64,000 nucleotides of DNA from Acidobacteriota bacterium (GTDB lineage: Bacteria > Acidobacteriota > Thermoanaerobaculia > Multivoradales > UBA5704): the NCBI GenBank assembly GCA_040005235.1, contig JBDTZG010000005.1, positions 117,185 through 181,184 of the forward strand, given 5' to 3'. Position numbers and translations under genes: made by a program. Shown here one piece after another: positions 19,033 to 58,786 of this stretch (positions are counted from its first letter, which is position 1; every line of letters begins with the position of its first letter). Below the pieces are notes generated by a model that did not search any database, was not told the origin of the DNA, and saw only the letters and a program-made list of their open reading frames with translations.

Positions 19033-19347
19033 GTCCAGCTCACAGGTGATCCGGTCCAGCTCACTAGTGATCTGGTCTAGCTCACCTGTGTTTTGGTCCA
19101 GCTCAGTAGTGATCTAGGCCAGCTCACTGGTGATCTGGTCCAGCTCAGTGGTGATCTGGTCCAGCTCAGTGGTGTTTTGGTCCAGCTCAGTGGTGATACG
19201 GTCCAGCTCACTGGTGTTTTGGTCCAGCTCAGTGGTGATCCGGTCCAGCTCACTGGTGTCTTGGTCCAGATCAGTGGTGATCTGGTCCGTCTCACTGGTG
19301 TTCTGGGCCGGCTCAGTGGTGATCTGGGCCGACTCACCGGTGCTGCG
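19033..19347. repeat. Tandem repeat, ~15 x 21 bp, consensus GTCCAGCTCA(G/C)TGGTG(A/T)T(C/T)TG
   Basis: Units start at 19033, 19054, 19075 and so on to 19327; they degenerate toward the right end. Confidence 0.95.
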
Positions 19348-48340: not shown

Positions 48341-49438
48341 ATGACCGAACCGATGGCCAAACCCTCCCTCAAATCGATCGGCCAGCCGATGCGCCGGGCC
48401 GTTAGCGTATCGACTGAAGACCTGGTGCATTCCGAGGCCCTTCCGGGCGGCGGCAAGCTGCCGCTCGTCCTGCGTCCTTCGGTCCCCGGCGTCGATCTCG
48501 CCGCATGGGCCGAAGGGCACCGCGCGCAGTTGACCGAGCAGCTGCTGGAGCACGGCGGCCTGCTGTTCCGCGGCTTCCCCATAGCCCAGGTCGACGAGTT
48601 CGAGCGCGCCTTTCGCTCGATCGCGGGCGACATGTTGGAGTACAAGGAGCGCTCTTCGCCGCGCCATACCGTGGCGGGGAAGGTCTACACCTCGACCGAC
48701 TATCCGCCGGATCAGCCGATCTTCCTGCACAACGAGAACTCGTATCAGAACGCCTGGCCGATGCGTATCGGGTTCTTCTCCTTCAAATGCGCGACCCGCG
48801 GCGGCGAGACGCCGATCGCCGACACCCGGAAGATCTTCGAGCGGATCGATCCAGAGATCCGGCAGAAGTTCATCGACAAGAAGTGGACCTACGTCCGCAA
48901 CTTCGGCGACGGTTTCGGCCTTCCCTGGCGGGAGGTGTTCCAGACCGACGACCGCGCCCAGGTCGAGGCTCATTGCGCCAAGAGCGGCATCCAGGTGGAG
49001 TGGAAGGACGGCGATCGCCTGCGCACCCGCGCGGTGCGCCCGGCGATTTCGCGCCATCCGTACACGGGAGAGCTGGTCTGGTTCAACCATGCGACGTTTT
49101 TCAACGTCTCGACCATGGCGCCGAGCGTCCGCGAAGCCCTGCTCGACGAGTTCGACATCGAGGACCTGCCGACCCATACCTACTACGGGGACGGTTCGCC
49201 GATCGAGGACGACGTGCTCGACCACCTGCGCGCCTGTTACGACGCCGAGACGGTCAAGTTCCTCTGGGAGCCGGGCGATCTGCTGATGCTCGACAACATG
49301 CTCGCCGCCCATGGGCGTTCGACTTTCGAAGGGGAGCGCAAGGTGCTGGTCGCGATGGCCGACCCCAAAACCTGGACCGAGCTGGCCGAAGTCGACAGCC
49401 CCGCCATTGCGGTGGGAGCCGCGCCGGTGCATGGCTGA
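48341..49438 (+). CDS. TauD/TfdA Fe(II)/2-OG dioxygenase, SyrP-like
   Basis: VYTSTDYP, LHNENSY, GGETP, WFNHA, DNMLAAHGR. Confidence 0.9.
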   Translation: MTEPMAKPSLKSIGQPMRRAVSVSTEDLVHSEALPGGGKLPLVLRPSVPGVDLAAWAEGHRAQLTEQLLEHGGLLFRGFPIAQVDEFERAFRSIAGDMLEYKERSSPRHTVAGKVYTSTDYPPDQPIFLHNENSYQNAWPMRIGFFSFKCATRGGETPIADTRKIFERIDPEIRQKFIDKKWTYVRNFGDGFGLPWREVFQTDDRAQVEAHCAKSGIQVEWKDGDRLRTRAVRPAISRHPYTGELVWFNHATFFNVSTMAPSVREALLDEFDIEDLPTHTYYGDGSPIEDDVLDHLRACYDAETVKFLWEPGDLLMLDNMLAAHGRSTFEGERKVLVAMADPKTWTELAEVDSPAIAVGAAPVHG

Positions 49439-51152
49439 TCTTTTCGTCCTGCTTGCGTTCATCCGCCGCCTGTCGCGCGGCGTGCCTTTCGCGGGTTTCT
49501 TGATCGTCGGGGTCGTCCTCGCGGGGGTCGCGGGCGGCCTCGCCAACACGGCGCTCGTGGTGTCGATCAATACCGCGATCGCCCACGGCGGGCCGGCCTC
49601 CGGCCTGGGCTGGCGGTTCATCGGCCTGTGCGCGCTGTTGCCGGTCTTCCGCATCTCGTCGCAGATTCTTCTGCTCCATCTATCGCAGAAGAGCATGCTC
49701 CAGGCGCGGCTGCAGCTGGCGCGCCGAATTCTGGCCGCGCCCTTGCGCCAGCTGGAAAACGTCGGCCCGCACCGGCTGATGACCATTCTTACGAGCGACA
49801 TCGGGCAGATCGTCGACGCGTTGTCGCAGCTGCCCATGATGTTCATGCATCTGGCGATCGTCCTCGGCTGCCTGGGGTACCTCGGCTACCTTTCGCCGAC
49901 GGCGCTCTCTTACGTCGTCCTGTTCATGATCATCGGTGTCGCGACCTACCGCTTTCCGATCGGCAGGGGATTGGTCTTTTTCGAGCGCGTCCGCAAGGAG
50001 ATGGACGGACTACTCAAGAACCTCCGCGCGCTCACCGAAGGGACCAAAGAGCTGAAGATGCACACCCTCCGGCGCGAGACCTACATGGTGGACGTCGAGT
50101 CCAACGCCCGGAAGCTCCAGCGCGATGCGCGCAGCGGCGGCATCCTGTTCGCCTTGGCCGCGAGCTGGGGGCAGGTGCTCTTTTTCATCATCCTCGGCCT
50201 GATGGTGTTCGTCGTGCCGAAGGGCCAGGAAATGCCCTCGTCGACGCAGGTCGGCATCGCGCTCGTCCTGTTTCAGCTGATGACCCCGCTCGAAGTCCTG
50301 CTCAACATGCTGCCGGTCCTCGGCCGTTCGGTCATCTCGGCGCGGGCGGTCGAACGATTGGGCCTGTCGCTCGCCCAGGAGGCGGGCGAGGCGCAAGGGG
50401 CGGGGCGCGGAACGAAGGATCTCAATCGCGATTGGGGCTCGATCGAGTTGGCCGGCCTCCGCCACACCTACCGCGCGGAAGGCTCGGGGGGCGAGAGCGA
50501 AAGCTTCACACTCGGTCCGATCGAACTGTCGTTTACCCCCGGCGAAATCATCTTCCTGGTCGGCGGCAACGGCAGCGGGAAAACCACGTTGGCGAAGATC
50601 CTGCTCGGGCTCTACCCGCCCGAGGTGGGGGAGATCCGCTTCGCCGGCCGGCCGGTGACCGACGCCAACCGCGCCGAATACCGCGACCATTTCGCGGTGG
50701 TCTTCTCCGATTTCTTCCTGTTCGATCGGCTGGTCGGCGGCGGCGAGATCGACCAGTTGGACGCCGACGCCCTGCGCTATCTGGAACGCCTGCGGCTCGC
50801 TTCGAAGGTGAAGGTCGAAGGGGGCCGGTTGTCGACGATCGAGCTGTCGCAGGGCCAGAAGAAGCGCCTGGCGCTGCTCGCGGCCTACCTCGAAGACCGG
50901 CCGATCTACCTTTTCGACGAATGGGCCGCCGACCAAGATCCGTTCTTCAAACAGATCTTCTACCGCGAGCTGCTGCCGGAGCTCAAAAAGCGCGGCAAGA
51001 CGGTGTTCGTGATCAGCCACGACGACCACTATTACGACGTGGCCGATCGCCTGATCAAGCTCGACGCCGGCAAGGTCGAATTCGACGTGCCGAAGATCGA
51101 CCCCGCCGCGATGACCGCCTCGTTCGCCCGGAGCGAGAGCACGCGGGTGTAG
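49431..51152 (+). CDS. Cyclic peptide export ABC transporter (SyrD/PvdE/YojI family)
   Basis: GTKELK, GGNGSGKTT, VFSDFFLFD, LSQGQKKRLAL, FDEWAADQDP, ISHDD. Confidence 0.92.
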   Translation: MADLFVLLAFIRRLSRGVPFAGFLIVGVVLAGVAGGLANTALVVSINTAIAHGGPASGLGWRFIGLCALLPVFRISSQILLLHLSQKSMLQARLQLARRILAAPLRQLENVGPHRLMTILTSDIGQIVDALSQLPMMFMHLAIVLGCLGYLGYLSPTALSYVVLFMIIGVATYRFPIGRGLVFFERVRKEMDGLLKNLRALTEGTKELKMHTLRRETYMVDVESNARKLQRDARSGGILFALAASWGQVLFFIILGLMVFVVPKGQEMPSSTQVGIALVLFQLMTPLEVLLNMLPVLGRSVISARAVERLGLSLAQEAGEAQGAGRGTKDLNRDWGSIELAGLRHTYRAEGSGGESESFTLGPIELSFTPGEIIFLVGGNGSGKTTLAKILLGLYPPEVGEIRFAGRPVTDANRAEYRDHFAVVFSDFFLFDRLVGGGEIDQLDADALRYLERLRLASKVKVEGGRLSTIELSQGQKKRLALLAAYLEDRPIYLFDEWAADQDPFFKQIFYRELLPELKKRGKTVFVISHDDHYYDVADRLIKLDAGKVEFDVPKIDPAAMTASFARSESTRV

Positions 51153-51285
51153 GGCGGGCGCGATTCAGCCGAGGACGTCGGTCGGCGGGTTCTCCCTGGC
51201 GAATTATAAGCGACAGGTGCCCCGGTACATCCCTCCGTCGCGCCCGAAACTCCTTGCCGTGGTCGTCCGTAGTCGAGACCGATGA

Positions 51286-51516
51286 CGCGTCCGAATTTCC
51301 ATTTTTCGGTCCGATAATTCGACGGGCGGTCCGATTTCTGCGCTTTCGGTCCGAGGTGGCGCCTATCGCGCGTCGAAATTCCACTGTGCGTCCGATCTCA
51401 GTGGAGTGCGTCCGGTAACTGTGAGATGGGTCCGAGAACTGTCAGTACGCGTCCGATGGCTGCCGTATCGGTCCGAGAACTGCGCCACGCGGCCGATGCT
51501 GGGGATTCAAGTCCGA
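51286..51516. repeat. Phased non-coding array: GTCCGA core every 20-21 bp with variable spacers (~12 units)
   Basis: Core starts at 51289, 51309, 51329, 51349, (51371 degenerate), 51390, 51410 (GTCCGG), 51430, 51451, 51471, 51491 (GGCCGA) and 51511. Confidence 0.9.
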
Positions 51517-51730
51517 GAGCTTGGTTAGCTTTGTGCTGCTACGCCAACGGTCTGGTGACCGCCCGGCTCGCGGTGCCGATCCAGCCAGTATCCCCAGAGC
51601 ACGAGCAGCCAGATGGATTGCCCGCCCCAAGCCAGGGCTTTGACGTCGGCTGGCGCCGGGCTCAAGATCGCAGCAGCGTCTCTAAACGGAAAGTCTCATC
51701 GTGCATCCTATTGGGTGAGGAGCCCCTACT

Positions 51731-52996
51731 ATGGTCCGGAAATTACGATCCGCACTCTGCGCCTTGAGCGCGTCTGCCTTTTTGCTTCATGCCGTTGCAT
51801 TCGCGGCGACGACAGAGCAGGCCTCACTGTCACCCGCCGCCGCGAAAGTCTTCGACGAAGCCTATGGAGCCATGGCATCCGGGCGGTTGCCGGAAGCCTT
51901 GGATGCTTACGAGAAGGCCGTGGAGTTGGCGCCCGATTCTTGGGACATCTGGCTGGAGTACACCTCCGCCCTGCGGCAAGCAGGGTTTCTTCAAAAGGCC
52001 GCCCGCGCGGGGTGGCGCACGGTGGAGCTTGGCCCCGATCGAGTGGATTCTTGGAACAACCTCTCGAACGTCTTGATCGCCGCCAATGCATTGACTGAAG
52101 CTTTGGAAGTTGCCGAGCAGATGGCCCAACGCTTCCCCAAGGCTCCACAAACCCTGGAGACCTTTACGAATCTGGGGTACGGAGCCTGGACTCTCAAGGA
52201 CTATGCGCTGGCGGAGCGCAGCTTGATGCGCGCCCTCCAGTTGGAGCCTGGCCACATCTTGGCCAAGGTGGATCTGGCGGCGGTCCACCTGAGCGCTGGT
52301 CAACCTGGCGGGAAGGCCGAATTGGAAAAGGCACTCGCCGCAGCTAAGAAAGCTTCGGACGCAAACGGCGTGAAGTGGGCGGAGATCCTTCTTGCCACGG
52401 CGAAGGAACACAAGGGCGTCCTCGGGGCGCCCTATCCTCCTACCTGGGCCGCCGAGGAACTTACGTCGATCTTACGAACCCGTCCAAAGGATGGAACCGC
52501 GGCAGCGCTTCCGATCGAAAATCCGATCCCCAGTACCTTTCTCCTGAAGCGCCTGGGTACTTTGCAGCTTGCGGTACCGGACGGCTGGTGGGAGAGCCGG
52601 GAGGGAAGCAAGCAGGAAATCGGCTTTCTCAATCTTGAATACAGATCTCCGAAGGCAGATACCTTCTTGATCAAAATCTCGGGCCTGATCCCCCCGGACG
52701 GCCCCAAGTCTCTCAAGCCCGAACTCGCCCGAGAAATGCTTGAATCCCAATTCGGCAAGAGCGGGGCTCGATTGAACTGGATTCCCCTCGCCCATGGAGC
52801 GATGGTCTGGTCCAAAGACCCATCCTGGAAGCCCGGTAAACCGGGAGACTATCCTCACCTACTTTCTGCCCAGGTCGAAGTCGGTCCGGTCTGGGTCATT
52901 GTCAGCGCCTTTTGGGGGGAGTCTCCGGCTGCCCCCCCTAAGGAATTTCTAGATCTGGTCTCGTCCCTCGCTTGGACGGCTTTGCCGAATCCCTGA
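51731..52996 (+). CDS. Secreted TPR-repeat protein
   Basis: Signal peptide (...LLHAVAFA), TPR motifs (AYEKAVELAPD, WNNLSNVL, TNLGY) and an unknown C-terminal domain. Confidence 0.8.
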   Translation: MVRKLRSALCALSASAFLLHAVAFAATTEQASLSPAAAKVFDEAYGAMASGRLPEALDAYEKAVELAPDSWDIWLEYTSALRQAGFLQKAARAGWRTVELGPDRVDSWNNLSNVLIAANALTEALEVAEQMAQRFPKAPQTLETFTNLGYGAWTLKDYALAERSLMRALQLEPGHILAKVDLAAVHLSAGQPGGKAELEKALAAAKKASDANGVKWAEILLATAKEHKGVLGAPYPPTWAAEELTSILRTRPKDGTAAALPIENPIPSTFLLKRLGTLQLAVPDGWWESREGSKQEIGFLNLEYRSPKADTFLIKISGLIPPDGPKSLKPELAREMLESQFGKSGARLNWIPLAHGAMVWSKDPSWKPGKPGDYPHLLSAQVEVGPVWVIVSAFWGESPAAPPKEFLDLVSSLAWTALPNP

Positions 52997-53640: not shown

Positions 53641-53835
53641 CTACCGGTGTTTCGCGATGAGCTCTCGCACGGCAGGGACGAGCCCGGTGGGGATCTCCAT
53701 CACCGTTTGAGTCTGATCCTCGAAAGAAGCCTGATCTTCCGCCGCAGCCTCGTCCTCAGGCTGTTGCTCATAATGAGCCAGAACCCGGCCGATTCGGTCC
53801 TGGTCCCATCCTTCCGGGAATCTACTCTGCTTCAT
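53641..53835 (-). CDS. Small acidic protein, putative antitoxin
   Basis: MKQSRFPEGWDQDRIGRVLAHYEQQPEDEAAAED...MEIPTGLVPAVRELIAKH; ATGA-coupled to the upstream toxin-like gene. Confidence 0.75.
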   Translation of the reverse strand: MKQSRFPEGWDQDRIGRVLAHYEQQPEDEAAAEDQASFEDQTQTVMEIPTGLVPAVRELIAKHR

Positions 53836-54119
53836 CTCATGCTCCTCGCCTTTTTTCGACGCCGGTAGGCCATCAGCGGTTTGCCTCGAAGCTCATAGGC
53901 CGTGATGACAAACACGCTGTTGGGTTCCTTATCCGGCACATAGACAACGCGAAGGTGGCGTCCGTTCCTGGTTTGGCCGATGGCGATTCGGGATCCTTCA
54001 CTCCCAGGTCGATCTTCCCCGGGCCTATGCAGTATGTCCTCGACCTCGGATTCGTCGACTTCATGGTCATAGATGTGCGGCTCACCGCTCTCCGGGTCAA
54101 TGAAGAAGCGAAGCTCCAC
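53832..54119 (-). CDS. BrnT/DUF4258-like toxin
   Basis: HIYDHEVDESEVEDIL, AIGQTRNGRHLRVVY, FVITAY. Confidence 0.75.
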   Translation of the reverse strand: MELRFFIDPESGEPHIYDHEVDESEVEDILHRPGEDRPGSEGSRIAIGQTRNGRHLRVVYVPDKEPNSVFVITAYELRGKPLMAYRRRKKARSMR

Positions 54120-54335
54120 GGGCTCATTGTAGAGCCGAAAGGGGCCTGGCAAGGAGACGGCCATACGATTGGCTACGCGAACCTAATCGATCGACCGCTA
54201 CTTCCGCCGGCCCCATCTCTCGCCGCCGGAGCTGCCCGAAGTCGCCAGCGGGAGCCGGAATGCGGCCCCCTGCGACCCCGACGAAATCCCCGGTATAGGC
54301 TGCTCCCGAATCTAAACCCATCGGAGGAAGCGCTC

Positions 54336-54524
54336 ATGACCACCCAGAACTATCTCCGCATCTCCGGTCTCGTCTTCGTCCTCGTCGCCTTCGCGCATGC
54401 CTACCGAGCGATCCTTGCGCTCCCGCTGGTCGTGGGCACGGCCCAGCTCCCCGTCTGGTTTTCCTGGCTCGGAGCGCTGGGCGCCGGATTCCTGGCCGTC
54501 TGGGCTTTCCGCAGCAAGGCGTGA
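54336..54524 (+). CDS. Small two-TM membrane protein
   Basis: RBS GGAGG; MTTQNYLRISGLVFVLVAFAHAYRA...WFSWLGALGAGFLAVWAFRSKA. Confidence 0.8.
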   Translation: MTTQNYLRISGLVFVLVAFAHAYRAILALPLVVGTAQLPVWFSWLGALGAGFLAVWAFRSKA

Positions 54525-54567
54525 GGCGAGCGGTGCTGCCTCGCCACTAAGTAGACTCTTTCTTTGA

Positions 54568-54648
54568 GGCCCGAAGGGCCGCCCTATTTCAGCCCAGGCC
54601 AACGGCCTGGGTATGTGGACTCGATTTCCGGTCAAGGCCTGAAGGGCC
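54568..54648. repeat. Triple-hairpin REP-like element
   Basis: ggccc-gaa-gggcc, cccaggcc-aac-ggcctggg and ggcct-gaa-gggcc, between convergent genes. Confidence 0.6.
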
Positions 54649-54707
54649 GTTCGATCGCCTTGGGTGGCAGGCGCCCGTCAAGCGGACAAACCCGGCGAGG
54701 AGAATCC

Positions 54708-55010
54708 TCAAGCGGCTTCGGCGTGGAGACGTACCCCAAGCGCGCGGGCTACCTTGAGCACGGTTGCGAAGCTCGGGTTGCCGTTCTCGCTGAGCGCTTT
54801 GTAGAGGCTCTCCCTGCTGAGTCCCGCATCCCGGGCGACCTGCGACCTCCCGCGAGCGCGCGCAATGTCGCCCAAGGCGCGAGCGATCCCGGTGGCATCG
54901 TCCGGAGTTTCGGACAGCCAAGCGTCAAGATAGGCCGCCATCTCCTCGGGAGTCTGTAGCTGCTCGGCGACATCGTAGGGTACGGTCTTGGGTCTAGCGG
55001 TCTTTGGCAT
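54708..55010 (-). CDS. Addiction-module antidote protein (HTH antitoxin)
   Basis: PYDVAEQLQTPEEMAAYL...ARALGDIARARG.SQVARDAGLSRESLYKALS..GNPSFATVLKV. Confidence 0.9.
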   Translation of the reverse strand: MPKTARPKTVPYDVAEQLQTPEEMAAYLDAWLSETPDDATGIARALGDIARARGRSQVARDAGLSRESLYKALSENGNPSFATVLKVARALGVRLHAEAA

Positions 55011-55022
55011 TTCGAACGGCTC

Positions 55023-55127
55023 CTACAGGTTCTTGGCCAGCCGGATAGCCAGCTGGATATCTTGCGACTGCGAGGATTTGTCGCCACCGGCCAGGAGGAC
55101 GATTAGCTCACCGCTGCGCTCGGTGTA
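55023..55127 (-). pseudogene. C-terminal remnant of an addiction-module killer (RelE/HigB-like) toxin
   Basis: YTERSGELIVLLAGGDKSSQSQDIQLAIRLAKNL*. The 5' part is missing and the remnant abuts the stop of the 910-aa gene. Confidence 0.85.
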
Positions 55128-55134
55128 GCCGAAG

Positions 55135-57867
55135 CTATCCCCTCTTCGGTGATCGTTGGCTGGAAGCTCTAGGTTTAGATTTTTGAAATACAAGACGCTG
55201 CATGGAAAGTAATCCTAGGTTGCGTCCCCAATTGGCAAGCTTCTTTCCCAAATGGAGGCGGGTACTGGGTGCCAGTGACCCCAGCTCAAAGGCTCCATTC
55301 GCAGCATCCCCCCATTCGGTACCTTCGCTGAGAGATTTCCAGAAACATGTATATGGTGTGGCGGAAAGCAGGCGGCGAGATTCCTCGCTGAACCTATCGA
55401 CGGTCCAACGAGCTTCCCAAAGTCCATTCTTGGCCTCTCTCAATGCCCCAAGCCGCAAAAGATCAATCCGAGCCACCTCTTCGCTCCTAGTCAACTTACG
55501 CAAGGAAAGAGTTCGAGTCAAGGCACTCTGAAGAACTCTTATCGCGGTAGAATATGGAATGTTGGGAAGAAAAGGCAGGTCCGCTCGCCTATGGCCACGC
55601 CCTGACAAGTCGAGATTTCCCAGATCTCTCAGTACCGAGTCCCGATCCTGTTTTTCGATAGTGAGCACATCGTCGCTAGAAACGCGGCAAAATTTAAGAC
55701 GCCTTAGCCAGTCAACCAATAGGTTCCCGTAGTTGCTCCAGACGGCGCTTTTGGCCTCGACGAATGGGAAGTACTCTCTTAGCCAGAGGGGCACAATCTC
55801 CCGTGCTACGGGGCCTTCTTTTTCCAGCTTTACGAGAAATTCCGAGACCACCCTATTCTTGAGAATAGACTGCCTCACGTACTCGCCAAGTCGACCCTGA
55901 TGCTCATACTGCCGCGCGACCTCCGGAACTTTCCACATGCCACCTTCTCGGGCGACCAGTCCTACGAGCCTCAATTCGCGAAGTAGGTTGTACGTGCTAC
56001 CCATGGGTTTCCCTAGCCTCTTCGATAAATCCTCAGCCTCAAATTCAGTTGTGCCACCCAATTCCCTGAAGCACCGCATTGTGGCAACTAGACCTAATCT
56101 GATCACTTGAGCTTGCGCTCTCTCGGGAAGACGTTCGTAGAGGAGGTAGTCTTTGAAGACATCGTTGTAGGTGTCGTATGTTCCAGCGGAAAACCGCAAG
56201 AGCCGCCTATGAGTCAGCTTTTCTAGCATGTCAGGGAGAAAAGGATCATCCTCAAACCTCCGAACTATGCTGTGGTATGTTGCAGGTAAAATAGCAGCTA
56301 GCCTCGTCAAATACCCGCGTTCATGCTCATCAAGCTCGCCGATTTCTTCCTCAAACAAATCTTCGAGATGGAGGCCTCCTGAAAGTAACTCAGCCTGACT
56401 TAGCCCTGCGCTGAGTTTGGTTGCCACATGCGCCATGGTTCTCTTAATCAACCACGGGAAACCGTGAGCAAATTCTAACACCTGGCCAAGGATTGTAGTG
56501 GTTAAATGGCGTGATTGGCTTGACGCGATTGCGCGCAGCAGTGCCAATGCTTCTTCGCGCGAAAAATCTTGCAGATTCACTGAGTTGGCCAGGCTTCTGA
56601 GCCGTTCGAGGTTGACAACGATTTCATCATGAGTCGTTAATAGGTCGTCTTTCCTAGCAAACACAAATGCCGCATGTGGATTGCCAGCGGCAACGCACAG
56701 CGCAATGTGTTCGTAGGCATGAAAAACATCTGGTGCCTGAAAAGTTGCCTCGAATTGGTCGACCATGAAGATATTCAGAGATGGTAGGCCCTCCTCTCCT
56801 AGGCTCGCTAATGCTGGCGCAACGTCTTCGAGGTTCTGGATTTGGCGACCTGACTTTGTAAGGCGACGAACGAGGGCAAGTACATCTGTCACGGACTTTA
56901 CGTCCCGTGCATCGTGAAGCTCGACTCTCGCGCCTTGGTCGCGCCAGTTTTCGGCAACTACTGCTAGCAGGGAACTCTTGCCAACACCAGATCGGGATTT
57001 CACTTCGATGACCGCGCCATGAGTCTTCACTGAAGGATCAAGTAAGGCCTGTAGGCGTAACTGCTCTACCTGTCTACCAACGAAGTATCCCTTGCCTGCG
57101 GGTCTGCGAAAATCCAGCCAATCAGTCGCCGTGATTAGGCCATAGGGAATTTCCCTTTGGTTACCGATATCAGTGGGCGCTCGATCTGCATTAATGCTAT
57201 TCGGAAGCACGGACTCAAGCCCTTGAAGAGTGGGTAAATTGATAGCTAGGGCATCGAGAAACTTTATGTCGGAAACGGGAATTCCGTCCCGGGAGATTAC
57301 TAAAAAGCGGTCATCAAACACAGCTTCTTTTTGAGACCCTAACGCCAAGATGTAGGTGCCTCGATTGGTATGGAGCAGGTGCTGTGCAGTGGCCCGAGGC
57401 ATTAGCGGCTTTGTAATTCGTAGAACATCGGGCTCAGTCGGCAAGTCAAGGACTTTCCTAATCTGAAGCTCCAATTCGAGTCCGCACATTGAGACTACCT
57501 GATACTGTGTTGTCTGCCTAAGGTTTCGGAGGTAGTCCTCGGCTTCAGGTGAAATTGGGCTGGTTGCAAGAAATAGCGCTGCGTAGGGCTTCTCCCCGTG
57601 CAGGAAGGGCAGCGATTTCCCGACGAAGGAAGTGAGCAATGGGGCCGCGATAGTGTCACTGTGCGCCTTCGCCTCTCCAATTACCCGGCGACCATCAACT
57701 GTGTGCTCTCCATGTAGGTCATATTCCAGGGAGTTCTCTTTCCTGCGAGTTACGTCAATCGTGTATCCGCCCTTTTCGAGATAAGTACGAAGGAGCTGCT
57801 CAAACAGGACACCTTTGTGGAAGCGCTCATTATCCTCACTTTGTTCGGTTGAATAGAAGATGAACAT
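55135..57867 (-). CDS. Restriction-endonuclease-like (Mrr/PD-(D/E)xK) plus STAND NTPase, putative antiphage protein
   Basis: KGVLFEQLL...EYDL...GEAKA; FVGR..E; SRSGVGKSS; MVDQFE; HGFPW. Visibly lower GC than the flanks. Confidence 0.8.
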   Translation of the reverse strand: MFIFYSTEQSEDNERFHKGVLFEQLLRTYLEKGGYTIDVTRRKENSLEYDLHGEHTVDGRRVIGEAKAHSDTIAAPLLTSFVGKSLPFLHGEKPYAALFLATSPISPEAEDYLRNLRQTTQYQVVSMCGLELELQIRKVLDLPTEPDVLRITKPLMPRATAQHLLHTNRGTYILALGSQKEAVFDDRFLVISRDGIPVSDIKFLDALAINLPTLQGLESVLPNSINADRAPTDIGNQREIPYGLITATDWLDFRRPAGKGYFVGRQVEQLRLQALLDPSVKTHGAVIEVKSRSGVGKSSLLAVVAENWRDQGARVELHDARDVKSVTDVLALVRRLTKSGRQIQNLEDVAPALASLGEEGLPSLNIFMVDQFEATFQAPDVFHAYEHIALCVAAGNPHAAFVFARKDDLLTTHDEIVVNLERLRSLANSVNLQDFSREEALALLRAIASSQSRHLTTTILGQVLEFAHGFPWLIKRTMAHVATKLSAGLSQAELLSGGLHLEDLFEEEIGELDEHERGYLTRLAAILPATYHSIVRRFEDDPFLPDMLEKLTHRRLLRFSAGTYDTYNDVFKDYLLYERLPERAQAQVIRLGLVATMRCFRELGGTTEFEAEDLSKRLGKPMGSTYNLLRELRLVGLVAREGGMWKVPEVARQYEHQGRLGEYVRQSILKNRVVSEFLVKLEKEGPVAREIVPLWLREYFPFVEAKSAVWSNYGNLLVDWLRRLKFCRVSSDDVLTIEKQDRDSVLRDLGNLDLSGRGHRRADLPFLPNIPYSTAIRVLQSALTRTLSLRKLTRSEEVARIDLLRLGALREAKNGLWEARWTVDRFSEESRRLLSATPYTCFWKSLSEGTEWGDAANGAFELGSLAPSTRLHLGKKLANWGRNLGLLSMQRLVFQKSKPRASSQRSPKRG

Positions 57868-58074
57868 ATTTACCTTTCTTCGCTGGCTATGTAAGGACCT
57901 ATAGTTTCGAGCGAAAATAAATGACGCAAGTAGCTAGGCCCGCAGTGTGAATCACTCAGGGATGCGGGAGGCTCCTGTTTCTAGTCGATCGACCCTGGCT
58001 AACGTTCCTGTAGGGCTTAACCCGTTGATAGGCTACGATACTGTTGATGGCGTGAACCCGAGGAGACTCAAACG

Positions 58075-58261
58075 TCAACAGGCCGTGCTTGTGACTTTCT
58101 TAGGAGACTGCTTTTCCCAGGTGAGTTCTCCATTACGCATTACCACGATAGCGGTGTCCGTTTGGCGCAATCTCACTAGAGCGCTTTCCAGCTCGGACCA
58201 GCGCCGCCATCGCGCCTTCCGTATCGGGGTCGGGGCGACTCCGCCACTGTAGGTTACTCAT
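58075..58261 (-). pseudogene. Small partner gene of the ATPase, frameshifted and fused to it
   Basis: MSNLQWRSRPDPDTEGAMAALVRAGKRSSEIA continues in a shifted frame as QTDTAIVVMRNGELTWEK...*. Confidence 0.6.
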
Positions 58262-58786
58262 CGGATTCTCTCCTTCCTCCAAGAGTCGTGGTTGATCGCT
58301 GCTATTGTCGAATAGGCGCCGGTAGTCGACCAACTGCCGGTAGGTAACTTTAAAGTTACACAGTCCGGATGCAAAGCGACGGCGAATGGTCCCCTGCGGA
58401 ACGTCGTGCCCGCCCTGCGCCACCCGCTTGGCGACTCGAGCTATAGCTTCCTCCGGTGAGGCGAGCACTAAGAAGTAGAGCTCGACGGAATACCCCTCAG
58501 CCCGCCATCGCGGAATCATGCGCGCATAGCTCAAGCCGGACAAGGTTGTTTCGAAGGCGAAGCTTCGTCCCGCGGCGGCGTGGCTCGCGATTTCTTCGAG
58601 CATCAGGCGTCCGGCACGAAACGCGGCGGCGTCGGGGTTGAAGGGGGAGAGGCCGGCCGCGATCAGGTCGGCGTTGACGAAGATGGGGCAGTTTGCCTCG
58701 TTCGGCAGGAACTCCCGGGCGAAGGTGGTCTTCCCGGCGCCGTTCGGCCCGGCGAGGATGAGGATCTTCTTGCGGTCGGTCTCCAT
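58133..58786 (-). CDS. Zeta-toxin-like / AAA_33 P-loop ATPase
   Basis: LAGPNGAGKTT, FVNADLIAAGLSPF, FAFETTLSG, RVAQGGHDVP, FDNS. Confidence 0.88.
   Translation of the reverse strand: METDRKKILILAGPNGAGKTTFAREFLPNEANCPIFVNADLIAAGLSPFNPDAAAFRAGRLMLEEIASHAAAGRSFAFETTLSGLSYARMIPRWRAEGYSVELYFLVLASPEEAIARVAKRVAQGGHDVPQGTIRRRFASGLCNFKVTYRQLVDYRRLFDNSSDQPRLLEEGENPMSNLQWRSRPDPDTEGAMAALVRAGKRSSEIAPNGHRYRGNA

Follow-up and report, generated by a model that had tools for sequence, protein, structure and literature searches.

A conserved array of GTCCGA-cored 20-bp units at a synteny break in an Acidobacteriota genome, and its possible relation to an Xre/Cro-type helix-turn-helix gene family

In this study, a window of 64,000 nucleotides from an Acidobacteriota bacterium (assembly GCA_040005235.1, contig JBDTZG010000005.1, positions 117,185 to 181,184 of the forward strand) was analysed around a non-coding repeat array. 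The source genome is labelled G000 and the contig of the window C56, and the other C numbers denote contigs of this genome or of its relatives. The array (51286..51530 in window coordinates, + strand) consists of 12 units of 20-21 bp, in which a (C/G)(G/C)GTCCGA core is followed by approximately 12 variable nucleotides. It is intergenic, with an ABC-transporter gene (49311-51152, +) on its left and a TPR gene (51731-52996, +) on its right, and it runs in the same direction as both. The initial annotation had described the GTCCGA hexamer, preceded by CG or GC and recurring every 20 bp or so, and this observation was confirmed; its interpretation was supported in part. Exact hexamers were found in nine units, all on the + strand (51289, 51309, 51329, 51349, 51390, 51430, 51451, 51471 and 51511), and the remaining three units carried one-letter variants (GTCGAA at 51372, where a C is missing; GTCCGG at 51410; GGCCGA at 51491). 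Consecutive units were spaced by 20, 20, 20, 23, 18, 20, 20, 21, 20, 20 and 20 bp. Moreover, the array was found to be related to arrays that accompany HTX, a lineage-specific family of Xre/Cro-type helix-turn-helix (HTH) genes whose name was coined here.

The hexamer occurred 40 times on both strands of the window, nine of them in the array, and was thus rarer window-wide than in dinucleotide shuffles (69.0 +/- 8.2); its density in the rest of the window predicts 0.056 occurrences per 230 bp of one strand. The consensus of the array was.G.GTCCGA...CTG...T., in which the weak CTG 4-6 nt past the core corresponds to the CTG already noticed at a shared spacer offset. Pairwise identity was 0.89 for the cores and 0.31 for the 11-nt spacers. 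The latter value compares with 0.260 +/- 0.016 in within-spacer shuffles, 9 of 2000 of which reached 0.31, and the excess is due to the weak CTG. Therefore, the array is not a decayed variable-number tandem repeat with a single 20-bp consensus, and the suggestion of an old decayed minisatellite was abandoned, orthologous and paralogous arrays also being present. Tandem Repeats Finder detected just 2.7 copies (51429-51483). Two further identities that the initial annotation had dismissed were likewise rejected. A coding repeat is at odds with the period of 20 and the intergenic position, and the 21-bp relatives of the array in another genome of the family, G013, were conserved at the nucleotide level including third codon positions. 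Clustered regularly interspaced short palindromic repeats (CRISPR) have repeats of about 23-50 nt, unique spacers of like length and usually cas genes; here the constant part was 6-8 nt, the spacers of about 12 nt were inherited, and no Cas family was found among the scanned neighbours, the whole genome not having been scanned for cas genes.

A scan of the genome and its relatives for periodic GTCCGA and any co-occurring gene family had been proposed. A second array with the core GCGTCCGA, which is also the core of the window array, was found in G000 at C42:12574-12761, starting approximately 45 bp past the stop codon of an HTX gene of 133 residues (C42:12125-12526). Searches with tblastn and a profile yielded four further full-length HTX paralogues in G000 with 38-47% identity, and all five genes had their own 20-bp array about 40-230 bp downstream on the coding strand. 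The cores of these arrays were related yet different: GCGTCCGA on C42, CCGTCCCAGGAAGCGG on C128, GGTCTCCGAATGGGAG on C21, CGTCCCA with ACCGCG on C99 and CGTCCCGNATTCTGG on C135. Each locus had different neighbouring genes, among which Pfam detected no family of ParA, Rep, recombinase or transposase proteins. In most loci with a clear array the consensus unit contained GTCC(C/G/T) on the HTX coding strand, and the orientation of the array relative to the gene was constant wherever a clear consensus was found.

The association extended beyond G000. HTX matches were present in all 24 genomes searched of the same family (3-17 each) and in 4 of 16 genomes from the other families of the order. Among 20 HTX matches with E <= 1e-24, the best autocorrelation lag of the downstream DNA was 20, 21, 40, 42 or 43 in 18, with an autocorrelation of at least 0.5 in 14; in a second set with E <= 1e-20, the lag was 20, 21 or 40-43 in 15 of 16, and 11 reached 0.5. 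Since one locus was common to both sets, the two together comprised 35 unique loci, of which 32 had downstream periodicity and 24 an autocorrelation of at least 0.5. As a control, the upstream DNA of the 20 HTX genes gave 4/20, and the only case at 0.5 or above was the array of a neighbouring HTX gene; distant or partial HTH matches gave 2/13, none reaching 0.5. The orthologous modules of gene and array were stable across species, and HTX had no tblastn match in the plasmid and phage collections searched. In addition, a CATAGAGT/GTAGAGT-like word was seen about 10-20 nt ahead of the HTX start codon on C99, on C135 and in G013, and a weaker GATAGA about 24 nt ahead of that on C21; such words may be the -10 element of very short-leader transcripts.

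The HTX proteins have approximately 125-145 residues; a five-helix HTH domain forms the N-terminal part and a long helix the C-terminal part. Their Pfam matches, HTH_26 and HTH_3, were both sub-threshold, NCBIfam returned no significant match, and an HTX profile matched the N-terminal domain of lambda cI weakly (E = 0.07). The AlphaFold model (mean predicted local distance difference test score 82.9) consisted of the five-helix N-terminal domain and a C-terminal helix of 31 residues. The best Foldseek matches of this model were XRE regulators, controller proteins of restriction-modification systems, P22 c2 and 434 Cro, with root-mean-square deviations of 2.0-2.7 A over 60-72 residues and template modelling scores to the target of 0.62-0.73. 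Consistent with this, the neighbours of HTX in the ESM Atlas belonged to HTH_3/HTH_31/HTH_26 and Cro/C1-type clusters, mostly acidobacterial. The family is small (a search of 1.84 billion proteins at E <= 1e-3 gave 488 representative clusters), and a search for homologous proteins gave seven close relatives named 'hypothetical' or 'XRE-family'. On the basis of the structural model, HTX is thus predicted to have a DNA-binding fold.

The window array has no HTX gene beside it. No HTX match was found on contig C56, and the gene upstream of the array is the ABC transporter. Nevertheless, the array aligned unit by unit with the HTX-linked arrays of G000 (C42), of the sister species G003 (C22 and C33) and of G002 (C15). 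The aligned arrays had in common a lead-in, a first unit (GCGTCCGAATTT), a 41-bp interruption, a GTCCGGTAA unit and an end unit (AAGTCCGAG). In the window, the lead-in GTCCGTAGTCGAGACCGATGAC (51266..51285, +) corresponds to the lead-in GAGATCGGAC... of the C42-type arrays, and the terminal unit AAGTCCGAGAG... (51508..51530, +) is the one with which the C42 array ends. The irregular pair of 23 + 18 bp (51349..51389, +), apparent from both the spacings and the alignment to paralogous arrays and with GTCGAA as its second core, equals the 41-bp segment that interrupts all C42-type arrays, which indicates that the pair is ancestral and common to the paralogous arrays. The tail that follows the window array (51531..51559, +) was not common to the C42 array in the alignment. 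BLAST matched the window array to G003:C33 at E = 1.4e-8 and to G000:C42 at E = 2e-6. These alignments indicate that the window array descends from the C42 HTX array, or that both descend from a common ancestor, and that it either lost its HTX gene or never had one.

Stages of such a separation were seen elsewhere. At G003:C33:31118-31420 (locus L030), an HTX gene cut by an internal deletion to a short remnant is followed by a full array of nine GCGTCCGA units. In G005:C319 (L032:2970-3470), about 110 bp of an HTX 3' end and an array lie between 73-nt direct repeats that are 74% identical and 428 bp apart, the first overlapping the start of the neighbouring gene; this arrangement looks like an insertion or duplication joint. 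Judging from these two loci, orphan arrays can arise from HTX modules. The C42-type HTX (at least 71% identity) occurred in G000, G002, G003 and G005, which are the genomes with 20-bp GCGTCCGA arrays, while G001, G004 and G006 had no GTCCGA match and an HTX identity of at best 50%, and G007 (89% complete) had only a different, 21-bp type of GTCCGA array. Because these genomes are few (7-8) and related, the co-occurrence is consistent with dependence and is no proof of it. A further array was observed at G000:C59:35677-37789, where a paralogue of the ABC gene is followed, 63 bp past its stop codon, by an array of 12 units whose core, CCGTCCCAGGAAGCGG, matches that of the array behind the C128 HTX gene.

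Comparison with G003 revealed how the array has evolved. This species carries the orthologous array at the same locus, with 89.8% identity in the array and 94.4% in the ABC gene. Its spacings are 20, 20, 20, 41, 20, 20, 21, 20, 20 and 40 bp, and the sole indel between the two species is one whole 20-bp unit. Changes were found at 1 of 72 core positions and 24 of 173 non-core positions (Fisher p = 0.002), and in the two flanking genes 47/336 and 50/199 of the 4-fold degenerate sites differed. These values indicate that the core is under purifying selection, that the spacers drift approximately neutrally and that lengths change by whole units; four DNA runs compared with the array repeated the picture seen with G003. 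The comparison of spacers between relatives that had been called for showed that their order was inherited and that units were added by tandem duplication. Across the paralogous arrays, invariant gap-free columns made up 39/48 in the cores and 46/153 elsewhere, a contrast that is inflated because the cores anchor the alignment. Furthermore, in G013 the step between units was exactly 21 bp in 149 of 157 cases although the non-core pairwise identity was only 0.40-0.48, and so exact a register under heavy substitution argues that helical phase, a DNA-level property, is constrained. Selection acts, on these data, on the core and the register rather than on the spacer sequence.

The unit conserved between the two species was not the array alone but the block 51266-51559, including the 20-bp lead-in and the 29-bp tail, which had one change in its 29 positions. 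The intergenic DNA on either side of the block was replaced in G003; on the right side, 128 letters are skipped and 229 other letters are present. Just past the block, a segment of 110 bp (51563-51674), absent at the orthologous spot in G003, was also found elsewhere in G007, G002, G001 and G005 with 75-88% identity; it holds a 46-codon minus-strand open reading frame with a hydrophobic centre and no Pfam match.

These data bear on the view that the array has no function, being either a remnant of a duplicated HTX module that chance has preserved or a selfish satellite, with cores homogenised by slippage or gene conversion and not by selection for binding. No neighbouring gene requires the array, orphan copies arise through partial duplication or gene decay, tandem duplication of units does occur, and among the eight genomes of the genus only G000 and G003 have an array at this locus, all of which would fit such an origin. 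However, a relic would not be expected to change so unequally in core and non-core positions since the split from G003, nor to keep its cores across old paralogues with diverged spacers. Gene conversion would even out whole units, not six letters, and the block stands out as a conserved stretch amid replaced flanks. A relic or satellite is thus an unlikely explanation.

The position of the array in the chromosome is also informative. It starts 134 bp past the stop codon of the ABC gene, at the exact end of synteny with five other genomes of the genus, in which the ABC orthologue is followed at 30-170 bp by another gene with no array between. In G000 the gene that normally follows sits on contig C68, with no array ahead of it, and this displacement places the array exactly at the synteny break. 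Downstream lies an island whose cargo (53832-58786) includes a DUF4258 gene, a 910-residue gene matching Mrr-type nucleases and STAND NTPases, and a Zeta-toxin-like kinase gene; the 910-residue gene has 49-54% G+C against approximately 64% in its surroundings, and the contig ends at the end of the window. The break and the gene content bore out the earlier remark that the array borders a variable island. At 54567-54611 (-), Rfam identified an Acido-Lenti-1 RNA (42.4 bits), and nothing else in the window reached the gathering threshold.

Such a setting raises the possibility that arrays of this kind mark or promote the joints of inserted DNA, for example as a target or by-product of a recombinase or of template switching. 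The exact coincidence with the break, the low-G+C STAND/Mrr-type and toxin-antitoxin-like genes beyond it and the direct repeats around the array of G005:C319 speak for this possibility. On the other hand, Pfam searches around the arrays examined, HTX-linked and orphan alike, revealed no recombinase or transposase, the far side of the break had no second array, and the stability of the modules between species and the lack of HTX matches in plasmid and phage collections also weigh against it. A recombination or insertion-border element is regarded as very unlikely, although the recombination-site graveyard put forward in the initial annotation retains some support from the location at the break.

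Arrays of similar period were widespread in this lineage. In G000, 74 regions exceeded the power threshold at a period of 20-21, compared with 1-8 in five control period bands. The window array itself scored 1.83 against a threshold of 4.5, so that the scan misses weak arrays of its kind and 74 is a lower bound in this respect, although coding heptad repeats may be among the 74. Several array families with equal period and different unit sequences coexist in G000, which thereby fits the published type of genome rich in 20-21-nt repeats. One of these was also seen in the window (19033-19340), where about 14 near-identical 21-bp units (GGTCCAGCTCAGTGGTGATCT) lie between two minus-strand genes; this array is open in several frames and looks non-coding, the same unit recurs in arrays at C107:5847-6034 and C21:13031-13197, and its core was not found in any HTX-linked array of G000. 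Three GTCCGA hexamers at 20-21-bp spacing were found in 12 of 41 relatives, comprising 11 of 24 genomes of the same family and none of 16 from the other families of the order. Across the family, 35 of 92 genomes and 7 of 11 genera had the pattern, although some of the 35 have just 1-3 matches that may be coding or due to chance (a reversed control pattern gave 0-5). In a sample of the phylum, 16 of 401 genomes had a match, and outside the family the matches listed were (GTCCGAW)n heptamer runs or near-perfect 21-bp repeats. Runs of GTCCGAA or GTCCGAT heptamers were seen in G123, G227 and G204, which belong to another family of the phylum, and their 7-bp period is one third of 21. In G013, eight or more arrays of 19-24 units were found, and the genes around them were unrelated.

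A second array-linked gene family, termed ARX, was found by clustering the open reading frames that flank periodic regions. The ARX proteins have approximately 120-135 residues, are helical with a basic tail and belong to no Pfam family. G000 has 27 ARX genes, one of them 13 kb left of the window (C56:103932-104300), and an array with a 20-, 21-, 40- or 42-bp repeat lies directly upstream of 15 of the 27 and downstream of none. In two or three cases a distant HTX-like HTH gene was seen near ARX, following it on C139 and C52 and lying about 2 kb upstream on C20. The repeat class is thus tied here to small proteins in more than one way.

We consider the odds to be about even (a probability of roughly 0.5) that the window array serves as a DNA platform on which copies of the C42 HTX protein, acting in trans, bind next to one another. 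This assessment draws on the anatomy of the array, its pattern of selection, its homology to HTX-linked arrays, the association of gene and array and the predicted HTH fold. The array would consist of operator-like sites that recur once every two helical turns, each with a GTCC-type core (GCGTCCGA in this case). The C42 HTX protein would be the candidate binder, every repeat taking up one protein unit and all units lying on the same face of the helix, an arrangement that would explain why core and register are kept while the spacers drift. Binding might well be cooperative, with contacts between neighbouring proteins fixing the register. The bound array could separate the ABC gene from the island as a boundary or roadblock, or it could titrate the protein as a sink, and this is the weakest step of the proposal. 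The phased protein-binding platform put forward in the initial annotation was in this way favoured as far as selection on core and register and the linkage to an HTH gene are concerned; the iteron or centromere character also suggested for it was not, there being no Rep or ParA neighbours.

Several observations count against binding by HTX. The window array lacks a neighbouring HTX gene. When nine HTX proteins were compared by tblastn with the 700 bp that precede 16 arrays, only the four known HTX genes were recovered; neither the window array nor 11 other orphan arrays showed an HTX relic in this interval. As gene and array are inherited together, the HTX loci are not independent events. A downstream site is unusual for an autoregulatory operator. 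With some 74 periodic regions in the genome against five HTX genes, and with 15 arrays tied to ARX, HTX is not the whole story. The Foldseek E-values were weak (0.01-0.1). The HTX of G013 differs in its recognition helix (LGHGN against VSHGR), although the core is the same GTCCGA; no simple rule related recognition helix to core word, G013 being the misfit and independent events being too few. Finally, palindromic covariation within the unit, seen in some related arrays (z = -2.4 for C21 and -2.3 for G013 L022), would also fit hairpins.

The last point leads to the possibility that the array acts at the RNA level: its transcript, either separate or continued from the upstream gene, would carry GUCCGA words that bind or sequester an RNA-binding protein or form small hairpins. 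A sequestering transcript would resemble the CsrB/RsmZ type of small RNA, which displays a repeated motif in hairpin loops or single strands. GTCC lies on the HTX coding strand throughout the clear loci, and the window array is co-directional with its neighbours. No promoter-like site was predicted in 51000-51900, and the single terminator-like site lies inside the TPR gene, with none at the array or between it and the ABC stop codon. The pairing of neighbouring spacers that had been noted, TCCACTG (51380-86) with CAGTGGA (51399-405), was verified, and this 7-bp hairpin places one core in a loop. Pairing within the unit exceeded column-permuted controls in C21 (3/300) and G013 L022 (6/300), and transcription of such repeats is discussed in PMC8161180. 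In contrast, neither strand of the block 51266-51559 folded better than its shuffles (z = +0.28 and +0.59), and Rfam gave no match to the array at the gathering threshold or at E <= 1; a structured RNA was rejected on these grounds. In the window array, pairing within units did not exceed that of column-permuted controls (z = +0.67 and +1.97), which also led to the rejection of repetitive extragenic palindromes and bacterial interspersed mosaic elements (REP/BIME), the associated RAYT transposase not having been searched for. Moreover, the hairpin gains an uncompensated mismatch and a wobble in G003, and a sponge would need no exact register of 20 or 21 nt, yet the register is conserved. Orphan arrays occur in both orientations relative to their neighbours, as judged by crude gene calls based on G+C at third codon positions that missed the TPR gene beside the array. 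An RNA-level element is accordingly thought to be distinctly unlikely, and the miniature repeat-spacer small-RNA array of the initial annotation, which is met by the same fold and Rfam results and by the inheritance of the spacers, was not sustained.

Non-coding tandem repeats that vary in sequence but keep a constant unit size of 20-21 or 52 nt have been described in bacteria by Subirana and Messeguer (PMC8161180). According to that article, each repeat holds a short characteristic word, the class occurs in many bacterial phyla and its function is unexplained, the hypotheses offered being a DNA-polymerising protein that needs a constant unit size, or small RNAs; no protein is named there. The present array, with a short constant word and a variable remainder in every unit, belongs to this class on all four points compared, and it resembles the published repeats in its 20-21-nt non-coding units, in the many arrays per genome and in the one short word per array. 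It differs in that the published sequences are described as species-specific, whereas a GTCC-type core is common here to 7 of 11 genera of one family. Further differences from that account are that the arrays are tied here to two multi-copy small-protein gene families and that unit order is inherited between paralogous arrays. Acidobacteria have no occurrence in the text of PMC8161180 that was searched. In the full-text literature searched, no report of such a link between gene and array was found; as far as these searches show, the repeat class is published, but its orphan copies, its paralogue-specific cores and its tie to a cognate HTH gene family are new.

A broader proposition may be advanced with more reserve. 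Constant-size repeats could be the DNA half of a protein-DNA system in which small multi-copy proteins, here HTX (array behind the gene) and the coiled-coil ARX (array ahead of the gene), polymerise along the array with one protein unit per two turns; each paralogue would read its own core, giving orthogonal sets of sites, and gene-side arrays would be accompanied by orphans, some of them boundaries or roadblocks at the borders of acquired DNA, the window array being one. As a joint statement this is rather doubtful. The pair of the C42 HTX protein and its array nevertheless offers a testable candidate for the binder of a long-unexplained class of bacterial repeats. Binding of HTX to both the C42 and the window array would give the class its first cognate protein, account for selection on core and register without selection on spacers, and make the paralogue-specific cores a natural set of orthogonal DNA addresses. 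Otherwise, the tight linkage of gene and array would still call for another explanation.

The modules described here may finally be compared with known arrays of protein-binding sites. In the F sopB-sopC (12 tandem 43-bp repeats) and P1 parB-parS systems, a centromere lies downstream of the gene of its binding protein, and many bound copies form one nucleoprotein complex. The HTX modules are similar in that the gene of an HTH protein is followed by tandem direct repeats, each with a partly palindromic site. Unlike sopC and parS, however, they have no adjacent ParA-type ATPase, the protein is of the Xre/Cro type and not ParB, and the modules are chromosomal, with five paralogues per genome in addition to orphans and a unit of 20-21 bp. 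A partition centromere was rejected, since no ParA-like family was found by the five HTX loci and HTX had no match in the plasmid collection. Iterons such as those of P1 incA, RK2 and R6K are direct repeats of approximately 17-22 bp, or about two helical turns, and extra arrays of them can titrate. The present units likewise combine a conserved and a variable part at two-turn spacing, but neither a Rep-type gene nor an origin context was seen near the arrays, a single chromosome carries dozens of them, and the conserved part is only 6-8 bp. A plasmid or phage iteron was also rejected, as Pfam detected no Rep family by the window array or the five HTX loci; DnaA boxes and AT-rich elements were not sought. 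Lambda cI, P22 c2, C.AhdI and C.Esp1396I bind operators cooperatively and side by side, and HTX, according to its model, shares the DNA-binding fold of these cI, c2 and controller-protein regulators. In the related arrays of G013, TCCGA-N5-TCGGA palindromes were found inside the unit. Whereas Xre/Cro regulators use two or three operators at a promoter, the arrays described here have 8-24 head-to-tail units outside any recognised promoter, and they either follow the gene of the regulator itself or are remote from it.

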